41,789 nucleotides of DNA from Spirochaetota bacterium (GTDB lineage Bacteria; Spirochaetota; B62-G9), in the NCBI GenBank assembly GCA_003645695.1, contig QNBN01000002.1, positions 1-41,789 on the forward strand, written 5' to 3'. Positions 3,851 through 41,789 of this stretch are shown here, piece after piece. The first letter of the stretch is position 1. Each line of letters begins with the position of its first letter. Position numbers and translations under genes: made by a program. The notes under the pieces were generated by a model, which saw nothing but the letters and a program-made list of their open reading frames with translations, was not told where the DNA came from and ran no database searches.

Positions 3851-4160
3851 ATTTATGGTTTTATTCATTAAAATTATGTCAAATTCCAGCACTTTAAATT
3901 AAGTAAGCGTTCAATAATCCAAAGCGTTAAATGGTATAATGTTCATTTTAATCATAAAATTCAACAATAATCAAAACTCTTTACAATATATAATCCTAAA
4001 TGTTTTCAAATTCCAAATATTAAATCTAAACTACTGTTCTTTTTTTTCTTTAGCATCTTTTTTAAAAGTGCTAATCCACCTTTTACCTTTTAATACCAAT
4101 ATTTTTGGTTATTTAGAATACTAATATCCAATAATATTTAAATCTAATTTCTTATATAGA
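3851..4160 (+). repeat. Intergenic repeat family, copy E (plus orientation, with a unique insert of about 190 nt), filling the rpsD-rpoA spacer
   Basis: 3851-3874 is an exact 24-mer reverse-complement match to 21664-21687. AATATTTAAATCTAATTT (in 4132-4150) is an exact 18-mer match to copy A. Confidence 0.6.
3873..3881 (-). promoter_or_regulatory. Candidate extended -10 box (TGACATAAT) for rpoA, inside the left end of repeat copy E
   Basis: Minus-strand TGACATAAT about 40 nt upstream of the rpoA ATG. It is positionally homologous to the TGTTATAAT upstream of rpsT in repeat copy C. Confidence 0.35.
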
Positions 4161-17933: not shown

Positions 17934-17997
17934 ATAGACAATCAGATTTAATGTTTTAAAAAATTAACGTTGTCTATTCGTTTTATACCCTATAAAG
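17934..17997 (-). repeat. Partial copy (D) of the intergenic repeat: right-hand module plus hairpin, in the fusA-tuf spacer
   Basis: The 16-mer GGTATAAAACGAATAG (minus strand) is identical to copy A (plus 17974-17989 vs 21525-21540). It is followed by an ATAGACAA / TTGTCTAT 8-bp hairpin (17970-17977 with 17934-17941). Confidence 0.55.
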
Positions 17998-20606: not shown

Positions 20607-20620
20607 TTTATCACCTCATA

Positions 20621-20652
20621 CAAAAAATTAGCCGGTTTGCGCAGAAACCGGC
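20621..20652 (-). terminator. Intrinsic-terminator-like hairpin abutting the rpsG RBS
   Basis: Minus-strand RNA is GCCGGUUU-CUGCGC-AAACCGGC followed by UAAUUUUUUG. An 8-bp GC-rich stem in otherwise AT-rich DNA. The U-tract ends 14 nt before the rpsG GTG. Confidence 0.6.
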
Positions 20653-20653
20653 C

Positions 20654-20700
20654 CCACCAAGGGACCTATCCAACCCATGTTGGTGGTTTCACCTAGGTTA
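20654..20700 (-). promoter_or_regulatory. GC-rich structured leader element upstream of rpsG (hairpin CCACCAA/UUGGUGG with a possible pseudoknot)
   Basis: Minus-strand ACCUAGGUGAAACCACCAACAUGGGUUGGAUAGGUCCCUUGGUGG. The 7-bp stem is 20654-20660 with 20680-20686. Loop UAGGU can pair with upstream ACCUA. It directly adjoins the terminator hairpin. Confidence 0.45.
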
Positions 20701-20814: not shown

Positions 20815-20984
20815 CAATTTAGTTTATTAATTACAATATTATTTAAAAACCTCTAATATCTTTAGGATTTAAAACTTAAAGGATTGAAGTAAGACAAATA
20901 TATAACAGAAACACTATACTTTAGACATAAATTATCTGACAATAAGATATATAAGGTTCCTAAAAAAAACAACTAAATATTTAT

Positions 20985-21477: not shown

Positions 21478-21687
21478 TAGAATAGGTAAATACACTTTCA
21501 ATCATAATAAAAGACAAGTTTTGCCTATTCGTTTTATACCTATAAAAAATTAGATTTAAATATTCTTTGATATTTCGGTATTCTAATTAATCATAAATAC
21601 TGTTATTAAAAAATAAAATATTTTGCTCCACTAGAACAGAGAATGCTGGTACCAAAAACCGTGATTTTAATGAATAAAACCATAAAT
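21478..21687 (-). repeat. Intergenic repeat family, copy A (minus orientation), starting at the rpoC stop codon
   Basis: Matches copies E, B, C and D module by module (see findings): 24-mer and 18-mer exact matches to E, ACGGTTTTTG/GTACCAG/ATTCTCTGTT shared with B, 16-mer shared with D. Confidence 0.65.
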
Positions 21688-29466: not shown

Positions 29467-29735
29467 AAAAACCTCTCTTATAGTACTATTTTGTTTTGTA
29501 GGAAGGTTAAAATTGGTGTTTGTCCAATCATAATTATCAAAAGAAGTGCCTTTTTACAATTTTTGCGATACACAGCAAATATTGTACCGTAAAATTTCAA
29601 ACAAACTAAAATATAATAAATTTTTTATAAAAAGGCGATTATCAAATAATGAATTTTCAAAATATTTTGTATTTTTCTACAAAATCTAACATCTATCGCC
29701 ATTTAATCATGTAATATTTCTGTGTTTCTTTAGAT

Positions 29736-29781
29736 AAAAGAATTCACACAAAAGGGATCACCCTTTTGTGTGAATTCTTTT
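29736..29781 (-). terminator. Perfect 21-bp hairpin (attenuator/terminator) between rplL and rpoB
   Basis: AAAAGAATTCACACAAAAGGG-ATCA-CCCTTTTGTGTGAATTCTTTT. Symmetric, so it folds on either strand with a U-run at the 3' side. Lies 37 nt downstream of the rplL stop. Confidence 0.7.
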
Positions 29782-29817
29782 AACATAGTATCAAACAGAT
29801 TTTTCTTAAAAAACTAT

Positions 29818-33476: not shown

Positions 33477-33554
33477 TTATTTTGCTCCTGTTTAAACCCG
33501 TTAATATAGTTCTTTTAATTTTTATTATTTTTTGAACCAGATTCTAAAAAAATA

Positions 33555-37715: not shown

Positions 37716-37925
37716 ACTTATGATTTAATTTATTAAAATTATAACATTTTGTACCAGCACTTTCTGGACTAGAGAAGTAATATCTTTTGTTTTTTTTACC
37801 AGATTTTATATATATTAAAGATAATATAAAGGATCAACCTTTAATTTCTATATTTCTTACAGGTATAAAACAAATAGGTACGCTAATACTATGAATTTTT
37901 CTTGAAAGTTTGTTTGCCTATTAAC
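37716..37925 (+). repeat. Intergenic repeat family, copy C (plus orientation), filling the divergent rpsT/uvrC spacer
   Basis: Shares with copy A, in the same order: TTATG.TTT.ATT.ATTAAAAT, TTTTGTACCAGCA.T.TCTG, AGGTATAAAAC(A/G)AATAGG, and TTGAAAGT.T.TTT.CCTATT. Confidence 0.6.
37738..37746 (-). promoter_or_regulatory. Extended -10 box (TGTTATAAT) for rpsT, inside the left end of repeat copy C
   Basis: Perfect TGnTATAAT on the minus strand about 55 nt upstream of the rpsT start. Positionally homologous to TGACATAAT upstream of rpoA. Confidence 0.5.
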
Positions 37926-39783: not shown

Positions 39784-40076
39784 ATAAGGCATATAGATCT
39801 AGTTTTTCCAAAGTATTAAAAAATAGTTAATATAAACTTTTCTCTAAGATTTAATACAGTAAATAAGAACATTTTTCACCAAAATTCGTAAATCCCGGTT
39901 TTATAACCGGAATAACATTTTGGGTAAAATCCGGATTGTCAAGCATGCAAATTATGGTTAACATTTTTTCACAAAGTCTATCTAATTATTTTTTATCTAA
40001 TTCACAGGTTCGAGGATTAAGTACAACTGCAACTAAAAAATAGATTTTGCTATCATATAATTAAAGTACTTATTAG

Positions 40077-40400
40077 TTATATTATTCCTAATTCTTTTAA
40101 TCCATAGTAAGCTTGATTTATTGTTTTCATTTTCTCTTCGGCTACTCTTTGCATTTCTTCTCCCATTATTGCAAATTTATCAGGATGATGCTGAGCAGCA
40201 AGCTCTCGATATCTTGCTTTAATTTCTTCTTTATTCACGAATAATGATTCTAATTCAGCGTCCCTTTTAACTTTTTTCAAAGTGTCTTTAGGTTCAGTTA
40301 TTTTGTATAAAGAACTACCCACTACTTTTACTATAAATCTGATTATAAATAATATTACAAATGAAGCTATAACAACAAAAATGAATATTATTGTATCCAT
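40077..40400 (-). CDS. Membrane-anchored J-domain (DnaJ-like) protein
   Basis: N-terminal TM helix (IIFIFVVIASFVILFIIRFIV) and a C-terminal J-domain with the HPD motif (YRELAAQHHPDKF...INQAYYGL). Confidence 0.75.
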   Translation of the reverse strand: MDTIIFIFVVIASFVILFIIRFIVKVVGSSLYKITEPKDTLKKVKRDAELESLFVNKEEIKARYRELAAQHHPDKFAIMGEEMQRVAEEKMKTINQAYYGLKELGII

Positions 40401-40742
40401 ATTATATTATCCAAAATTAAATACAACAAACAGAATGCATAATTAGGCTTAAATTAGGCTTTATATTTTATTTAATAACAAACTATCTACATGATTCTAA
40501 TGCAACACATAGCTTATAAAACTGTAAAAACAATACCTCAATAACCCAATAAAAATCCTCGCTAAATAAAATATGCTAAACCATATCTATCCTTTAACAT
40601 ATCCTATATTGCCTCTATATCTAATTTCTTATTCATAAGTTATATTGTTCTATTATTAATAATTTTCTCGTATTTTTCTTTGGATTTTTCCTAGAAATTA
40701 TATACAAAACAACTTGTATCTTTAAAAAAATTTCATTTACTC

Positions 40743-40895
40743 TCACTTTATTAAAAATACATCAACATCCAAAAATTCCACTATTATCTTTATCAACCCC
40801 ATTTTCCCATTTCTTACCTGAAAATATCTCAATCCCTCTCTCAAATAGATGTTTGTCCCCCTGATAGAACATATTAAAATGTATGCCATATTCAT
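40743..40895 (-). CDS. Hypothetical 50-aa ORF in the long dnaJ-like/tatA spacer, with weak GIY-YIG-like resemblance. Coding status doubtful.
   Basis: Hand translation gives MNMAYILICSIRGTNIYLREGLRYFQVRNGKMGLIKIIVEFLDVDVFLIK*. AAGGGA sits 6 nt upstream. Below the track's length cutoff, and no other support. Confidence 0.2.
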   Translation of the reverse strand: MNMAYILICSIRGTNIYLREGLRYFQVRNGKMGLIKIIVEFLDVDVFLIK

Positions 40896-41070
40896 CACAA
40901 ATCCCTTAAATAGGTACTTTGTTTTTTAAATGGATCCATAATAACTAAACTTTTTTTCAGGAGGATATTCTTTCCTACTAGATATTCATAATTAAACTCT
41001 CTCTATTTTCAACATTATTACACATCTGAAGCAGAACAAAAATTATTCATATTCCTTTAACATTATTTTA

Positions 41071-41677: not shown

Positions 41678-41789
41678 TAAGGTTTTATTCATTTAATTAA
41701 CGGTTTTTGTACCAGAATTCTCTGTTGTCTTTAATAATAGTATTTAAGTTCTAATTAGTAATGTTAAAATATTCAAGGTTACTTAAAAG
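41678..41789 (+). repeat. Intergenic repeat family, copy B (plus orientation), truncated by the window end, upstream of tatA
   Basis: AAGGTTTTATTCATTTAATTAACGGTTTTTGTACCAGAATTCTCTGTTG...TTAATAATAGTATTTAAGTTCTAATTAG aligns with copy A across the left and middle modules. Confidence 0.6.

Follow-up and report, generated by a model that had tools for sequence, protein, structure and literature searches.

In an uncultured member of the Spirochaetota, from sediment of marine or hydrothermal origin, the rpoC-rpsL spacer holds, on the minus strand and starting 7 nt past the rpoC stop codon, an inserted segment of 200 nt (21482-21681), whose relatives occupy other spacers of the window, as we call the whole stretch of 41,789 nucleotides that was analysed. 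The RpoB encoded in the window shares 83% identity with proteins deposited as "MAG: Spirochaetota bacterium" and 68% with Spirochaeta thermophila RpoB. RLD40963.1, a protein at least 90% identical to the host Lnt, was deposited as "Bacteroidetes bacterium", which is apparently a mislabel given that RpoB similarity points to Spirochaetota.

The earlier note on this DNA had described a dispersed intergenic repeat made of three ordered modules, and the module order found in the rpoC-rpsL spacer on the minus strand agrees with that account. In profile searches, three full copies (A, C and D) and two partial ones (B and E) stand above shuffled sequence, which bears out a repeat family in the window. 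The features are as follows, a slash marking a junction and bit scores referring to a profile of 28 family members.

21481-21685, minus strand: copy A, a full long form (TTATGG…ACCTATT) in the rpoC-rpsL spacer; 96.5 + 25.2 bits.
21682-21685, minus strand: putative TTAT target motif, the left flank of copy A; native rpoC-downstream DNA, with the same letters in the empty site.
37718-37922, plus strand: copy C, a full long form between rpsT (minus) and uvrC (plus); 63.4 bits.
41678-41789, plus strand: copy D (D1), clipped by the window end, between tatA (minus) and a 582-aa ADH-like gene (plus); 68.8 bits on extended sequence.
3853-4156, plus strand: copy B, partial, in the rpsD-rpoA spacer and antisense to the operon; 18.3 + 11.7 bits in two colinear pieces.
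17934-17997, minus strand: copy E, a right module standing alone in the fusA-tuf spacer (TTTAT/AGGGTATAAAACGAATAGAC…GTCTAT); 13.5 bits, and a probe match with 2 mismatches.

Copy D1 is 192 nt when complete, about 80 nt of it lying past the window end. Copy B consists of a left end (3853-3878), a 168-nt insert (3879-4046) and the remaining left and middle parts (4047-4156); aligned to its sister-lineage counterpart and to copies A and C, its homology ends at an internal TTAT/A junction, so that what it lacks is precisely the right module. The insert, present in a single copy, is unrelated to the repeat family. It is 84% conserved in the sister lineage, and the 10-mer TCAAATTCCA at its start occurs a second time ~135 nt downstream, near the insert end.

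Two nhmmer profiles, the first built from copies A, C and D and the later one from 28 family members, recover the same set in the window; with the latter, the best of 30 shuffles reaches 8.6 bits, below all five copies. The exact 24-mer common to 3851-3874 (plus) and 21664-21687 (minus) and the exact 18-mer common to 4133-4150 and 21547-21564, both pointed out previously, are present. Five weaker echoes that had been listed as well (at 33520, 20730, 16085, 40455 and 32077) are detected by neither profile, and the proposed unit length of ~210 nt gives way to a typical unit of ~160 nt in an alignment of 29 copies, in which A, C and D are long variants. One alternative is that the similarity merely reflects chance among AT-rich spacers, or an assembly artefact. 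The sequence is indeed AT-rich, and of four module probes one, the 18-mer AATATTTAAATCTAATTT, is not significant by itself, dinucleotide shuffles averaging 1.23 matches and 14 of 100 reaching 3. The suggested comparison with such shuffles nevertheless came out for a real family: at up to 3 mismatches, each of the other three probes has 3 matches against 0.01-0.09 in the shuffles. Both profiles are far above shuffles as well, 38 of 39 loci returned by a highly specific pattern scan hold true family members, and the same copies are present in independent ENA, JGI, NCBI (GCA_053938965.1, GCA_003645685.1) and Logan assemblies. The shuffle controls and independent assemblies already refute this reading, and its probability is negligible.

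Several other irregularities were seen besides the family. In the rpsL-rpsG spacer, 117 nt (20839-20955) are absent from the otherwise 99.8%-identical strain contig L096; the segment is single copy and present in the sister lineage, which indicates a strain-specific deletion and not a family member. The same spacer, 378 nt long here and 420 nt in the relative L100, closes just before rpsG with a G+C-rich hairpin and a T run (GGCCGGTTTCTGCGCAAACCGGCTAATTTTTT; ~20615-20700, minus strand), which looks like a terminator or an attenuator-type leader. In the rplL-rpoB spacer, a perfect inverted repeat of 22 nt around a 4-nt loop (29735-29782) is probably a usual attenuator or terminator. The region 39860-41063, holding a 107-aa DnaJ-domain ORF (40077-40400), is absent in the sister lineage, where the uvrC-tatA gap measures 198 nt. 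Between the dnaJ-like gene and uvrC, one strain (L003:3220-3490) has an insertion of ~240 nt, at a place where the scaffold contains Ns; it is built of GTCATTCCC…GGGAATGAC palindromic units and represents a different repeat family. The insert of copy B, the 117-nt indel and the dnaJ-like region were considered as family members and set aside, each being single copy in the sampled DNA.

The wider scan that the earlier note had called for yielded dozens of further copies on JGI metagenome contigs, in support of a real family. A very specific right-module pattern returned 39 loci; one of these (L157) was discarded as a chance match inside a gene of another organism, and the remaining 38, with G+C contents of 0.27-0.37, all carry family members and belong to the same organism group. 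These loci add up to 273 kb and, by profile, hold 61 copies; full-length copies number 31, at ~29 distinct loci. After the copies selected by the pattern are dropped, ~23 are left in ~270 kb, i.e., about one per 12 kb, which resembles the density in the window plus its extensions, the window alone having about one per 8 kb. Several contigs terminate inside a copy, as expected of a repeat that breaks assemblies. The 29-copy alignment has sharp ends, with conservation running from TTATGG to GCCTATT and unrelated sequence outside. The basic unit of ~160 nt reads 5'-(TTAT)GGTTTTATTCAT… to …TTGAAAGTGTACTTGCCTAT(T)-3', its bounds being TTAT/GGTTTTATTCAT… and …TTGCCTAT/T, and the long forms of 205-215 nt (the A, C, D type) contain extra internal blocks at two alternative positions. 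There are two main subfamilies, and pairwise identity averages 80%, with a maximum of 99.4% between different loci.

Searches of other collections gave no relatives. The pattern TTKGTACCAGMAYTYTCTG, which fits long-form copies only, was run against GTDB representative genomes, a collection from which the source species is evidently absent; it had 70 single matches in unrelated taxa, a chance number, none of them homologous by profile, and this outcome tells little about how widely the family is spread. The consensus has no homology in phage and plasmid collections (72,556 plasmids) and no similarity there to known IS ends. Two specific patterns had no matches in the viral contigs of IMG/VR, and a left-end pattern, with 41 single raw matches on viral contigs, was judged too unspecific for the metagenome scan.

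The ends of the element are informative about how it may have been placed. Across 26 copies, the four left-flank positions before GG (-4 to -1) are T in 21, T in 24, A in 24 and T in 19; the last of these is A in seven copies, with variants TTAA and ATAA, so that the consensus is TTAW. The right end CCTAT and the T that follows it are invariant (26/26), and flanks further out are unconserved. As had been noted before, terminal inverted repeats are lacking: by eye, reverse-complementing the right end of the consensus brings about 7 of 18 positions into agreement with the left end, and no inverted-repeat pair links both ends of any window copy. Any target duplication is at most 3 nt, in that TAT lies on each side of the insert and once in the empty site, and TAT also ends the element. 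The left motif being variable and the right one constant, a target motif (TTAW) combined with an element-borne motif (CCTAT) fits better than a duplication.

These observations bear on whether the family could be a classical MITE mobilised by a DDE transposase, with a 2-3 bp target (TA or TAT) duplicated in an AT-rich TTATT site. Derivatives of IS630/Tc1-mariner and IS5/Harbinger elements duplicate TA/TAT-type targets of 2-3 bp; the paired TAT at the filled sites and the single TAT in both empty sites would suit this, and size, intergenic placement, subfamilies and copy number are MITE-like. Nevertheless, we regard it as unlikely, since the two ends do not form inverted repeats (the count above, with GGTTTTATTCATTAAAAT as the left end), and a left trinucleotide of TAA in 7/26 copies against a right TAT in 26/26 would hardly arise from mutation of true duplications. 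In addition, the sampled DNA, part of the genome, yielded no DDE transposase in a motif scan or in Pfam searches of 10 proteins.

The last ~60-62 nt, the right module, can form a 9-bp stem, AATAGGCAA-N31-TTGCCTATT. At six or more loci it occurs as a solo unit of ~62 nt which begins directly past a TTTAT-like motif and has unrelated DNA upstream; the bare hairpin stands alone at ~6 further loci, and tandem extra right modules trail several full copies. These arrangements suggest that the right module is separable and perhaps a minimal mobile unit. A more radical version holds that the ~62-nt module (AGGTATAAAAC…GCCTAT) is self-contained in its mobility, using TTTAT and a single-strand enzyme supplied in trans, and that the 160-215-nt forms have captured upstream DNA; or else that a read-through right end makes a guide-like RNA, an analogue of omega-RNA, for a TnpB/IscB-type nuclease that reinstalls copies. 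We consider this a long shot. If it were true, this so far unstudied Spirochaetota lineage would offer a natural mobile module of very small size, programmable or target-specific, and perhaps a novel type of partner enzyme.

The same arrangements may be read in the manner of REPs and REPINs: a domesticated HUH transposase of RAYT type would have spread the ~50-nt hairpin, the primary unit, around which the 160-nt element was assembled as a composite. Hairpins and right modules standing alone at a dozen loci, the tandem modules, and copy B without exactly the right module would all accord with it. The palindrome, however, has no GTAG or CGTC tag on its 5' side, REPs are shorter than this unit and much less AT-rich, most of the family is made up of full elements rather than hairpins, and a motif scan of the ~400 kb sampled, a partial genome, revealed no RAYT-like ORF. 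On this balance a REP-like origin appears very unlikely.

Movement is most directly visible at copy A. The copy is present in all contigs of the window lineage, at least seven in number, where the rpoC-rpsL spacer is 327 nt, and is missing from four independent contigs of a sister lineage, where the spacer is 127 nt, as well as from one outgroup; three distant relatives have spacers of 72, 79 and 191 nt. The sister lineage (~95% nucleotide identity) comprises L076-L079, L087-L090, L092, L095, L097 and L099, and the distant relatives are L100, L181 and L184, L100 having ~77-83% nucleotide identity. A second filled and empty pair was found on L175 and L177, with the same junction as at copy A:

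Copy A, empty site, sister lineage: …GCTGTATTTTAATTTAT/TCTATAAGC…, also read TAATTTAT/TCTATAAG.
Copy A, filled site, window lineage: …TAATTTAT/GGTTTTATTC…GTATTTACCTAT/TCTATAAGC….
Second site, filled, L175: …TTAATATAT/GGTTTT…GCCTAT/TCATTTG.
Second site, empty, L177: …TTAATATAT/TTATTTG.

In both pairs the insertion is clean, after TTAT or ATAT and before T. It is formally possible that the polymorphism at copy A arose by precise deletion in the sister lineage instead of by insertion, the outgroup spacer being too diverged to align across the insertion site. The tatA-ADH spacer differs between the lineages in another way: in the window D1 is whole and a second copy, D2, is reduced to 36 nt, while in the sister D1 is internally deleted between two TAAGGTTTT 9-mers and the adjacent D2 is whole. 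Three relatives with ~83% RpoB identity have no family copies in the syntenic 24 kb, and their spacers are shorter. Because B, C, D and E are found in both lineages, A in one, and none in the distant relatives, the first four would have been inserted before the split of the lineages and A after it, and copies with 98-99% identity indicate activity that is more recent still: copies at distinct loci are up to 99.4% identical, in contrast to a difference of 13.1% between the lineages at 4-fold sites. The evidence thus points to a family that is mobile and has recently been active. At two loci (L151:1389-1568 and L173:1627-1786) the left flank holds a 7-10 nt remnant of another left end (TTTATGG or TTTATGGTTTA), which suggests insertion beside, or into, the retained TTAT of an older copy.

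All 65 copies examined lie between ORFs, in keeping with the intergenic restriction that the earlier note had asked about. Its emphasis on the ribosomal gene cluster, however, does not hold: density is ~1 per 8 kb in the window against ~1 per 12 kb in unrelated loci, the neighbours tested outside the window (Pfam, 10 proteins) are ordinary housekeeping and metabolic genes, and the family has no specificity for the cluster. Copies A, C, D and E all face the downstream gene, yet among 62 copies 33 share the strand of the downstream gene and 29 are opposed to it, and relative to the dominant gene strand of the locus, a proxy for replication direction on an incomplete chromosome, 8 copies have the same and 9 the opposite orientation. 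Given these splits, the sense orientation in the window is a small-number coincidence.

Another view would have selection maintain the repeat upstream of rpsL, tuf, uvrC and other genes as a functional module, for example a promoter, leader or terminator in portable form or a small RNA gene in many copies. In its favour are the shared orientation of A, C, D and E, a weak TTGTAC-N17-TAGAAT seen by eye inside the consensus, and the fold of the consensus sense strand, which surpasses shuffles at z = -2.5 compared with z = -1.25 for the antisense strand. Single copies, though, fold no better than shuffles (A, z = -1.3; C, z = -1.0), RNAalifold on 28 copies gives ~0 kcal/mol and essentially no consensus structure, and none of 53 predicted pairs has a compensatory change, with subfamily substitutions breaking helices 3 and 4. 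On these three grounds a structured RNA was rejected. Rfam searches over the window bring only two tRNAs to the gathering threshold, and permissive scans of two copies give nothing better than E = 3, which agrees with the previous opinion that this is no r-protein leader. Promoter and terminator scans are at chance level, for which reason such a cassette was rejected too. The even orientation counts, and the fact that copy A is simply missing from the same operon junction in the sister lineage, also weigh against selection, as does divergence: between window and sister it is 9.3% for element C, 13.8% for B and 20% for E, compared with 13.1% at 4-fold sites and 5.3% in other intergenic DNA. Element divergence near the 4-fold rate implies that inserted copies drift about neutrally. 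All in all, a functional module is highly improbable.

The family likewise appears to have no coding role. A tiny hydrophobic ORF (MVLFIKITVFCTRI…) opens with the ATG contained in TTATGG in 19 of 28 copies (in copy A, from 21683 downward on the minus strand), but as a small protein it was rejected, for the ATG is missing in the other nine, the length varies from 2 to 52 aa and the ribosome-binding site is not fixed. Since this left-end ORF is not maintained among the 28 copies, the earlier statement that the family has no conserved ORF stands.

Taken together, the rpoC-rpsL spacer copy probably belongs to a family of mobile elements, small, non-coding and non-autonomous, that is specific to this uncultured Spirochaetota lineage. 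Such an element would encode nothing and be moved in trans, its copies would drift neutrally once inserted, and those inside the ribosomal superoperon would reflect tolerance and not function. Of the candidate movers, an IS200/IS605-type transposase acting on single strands (HUH/Y1) is the most likely; the element would then be PATE-like, with TTAT as target motif in the flank and CCTAT as a 3' cleavage motif of its own. We put this mechanism forward tentatively, as plausible but rather less than even in likelihood. IS200/IS605 elements usually have a replication-linked orientation bias, and in IS608 the cleavage sites lie outside the hairpins. Here, no orientation bias is seen against the dominant gene strand (the 8 and 9 above). 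Hairpins are predicted at positions 4-24 and in the last 50 nt; the 3' motif CCTAT falls inside the terminal 9-bp stem, and the left stem, which relies on G-T pairs, starts 1 nt from the boundary. The invariant T past the right end would be target-derived, which the simple model does not predict, and in 225 tests none of the internal positions was found to co-vary with the left-flank variant (best p = 0.058). An alternative mover would be a site-specific process such as that proposed for bcr1 of Bacillus cereus.

The search for a partner was confined to ~400 kb, perhaps 10-15% of the genome by our estimate, and within that sample a crude scan for Y1/HUH and TnpB-like ORF motifs came back empty, which speaks against the IS200/IS605 mechanism to the extent that the sample allows. 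An all-against-all BLAST of 223 ORFs gave no multi-copy protein, and Pfam on 10 neighbouring proteins gave housekeeping domains only. The copies themselves contain no transposase either, as had been claimed, and none appears as a partner in the sampled DNA.

Small non-autonomous repeats are common in bacteria, and the find is unsurprising in kind. It does account for the unusually long spacers of the ribosomal superoperon in this host (327 nt between rpoC and rpsL compared with 72-191 nt in relatives) and for breaks in its assemblies, where many contigs end inside copies, and it illustrates that superoperon junctions tolerate insertions of 200 nt. With two empty sites, it is also a clean natural case of a TTAT-targeting element without inverted termini, for which the question of the mover is the same as for bcr1. 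If the partner enzyme were found, it could inform how minimal single-strand transposon ends are recognised.

Among systems already described, the defining marks of classical MITEs are terminal inverted repeats and target-site duplications of fixed length (PMC3184786). The family resembles MITEs such as Correia/NEMIS, ERIC, RUP and Nezha in size, copy number, intergenic location, subfamilies, site polymorphism and non-coding character, and differs in having no inverted termini. REPs are G+C-rich units of 20-40 nt whose GTAG or CGTC tag defines two superfamilies (PMC3733652). With REP/REPIN-RAYT systems the family shares a hairpin unit that occurs alone or in tandem and, probably, HUH-type chemistry, but its hairpin unit is ~50 nt long, AT-rich, starts with AATAGG and has neither tag.

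ISGst2, an IS605-family element with relatives in Geobacillus stearothermophilus, has a TTTAT target motif and gene-less PATE derivatives (PMC10055086). Like PATEs, the present elements lack terminal inverted repeats, and a target duplication, of 3 nt at most, is not evident; they are inserted directly 3' of a short flank motif (TTAT or TTTAT here, TTTAT for ISGst2; PMC10055086), have a related but different fixed motif at their own 3' end (CCTAT), ends predicted to form hairpins on one strand and clean empty sites, and are numerous non-autonomous copies that would depend on a transposase supplied in trans. They differ in that no Y1 transposase or TnpB was found in the ~400 kb sampled and no strand bias is seen, in that the 3' motif is inside the right-end stem, with an invariant T past the element and no guide-to-target co-variation, and in that they have no similarity to known IS ends in the phage and plasmid collections.

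The second close parallel, bcr1, is an intergenic repeat of ~155 bp flanked by TTTAT, with no known mover, for which a site-specific mechanism has been proposed (PMC3184786, PMC6542083, PMC6199540). It was compared by description, and no homologue of our element was found in the 72,556 plasmids, which include B. cereus group plasmids reported to carry bcr1; the match is one of behaviour only. Both are non-coding, intergenic and AT-rich, and of a size near 155 bp; bcr1 has dozens to >100 copies per genome, and the distribution varies between close strains; both have a TTTAT-type motif at the insertion site, here TTAT or TTTAT on the left and CCTAT, a partial repeat, on the right. On the other hand, a direct repeat of the full 5-bp TTTAT is reported to flank bcr1, whereas only TAT is common to both sides here; bcr1 is also reported to be transcribed and to have compensatory changes, of which we count 0; and its host phylum is Bacillota, not Spirochaetota. 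The opinion of the earlier note that the repeat looks unlike a classical IS or MITE can therefore be kept as regards the missing inverted termini but not as regards its kind, for the family fits a known one, with MITE-like behaviour as in PATEs and bcr1. Judged by these comparisons, it is a new family of genomic parasites whose kind is already known, and it behaves most like PATEs and bcr1.
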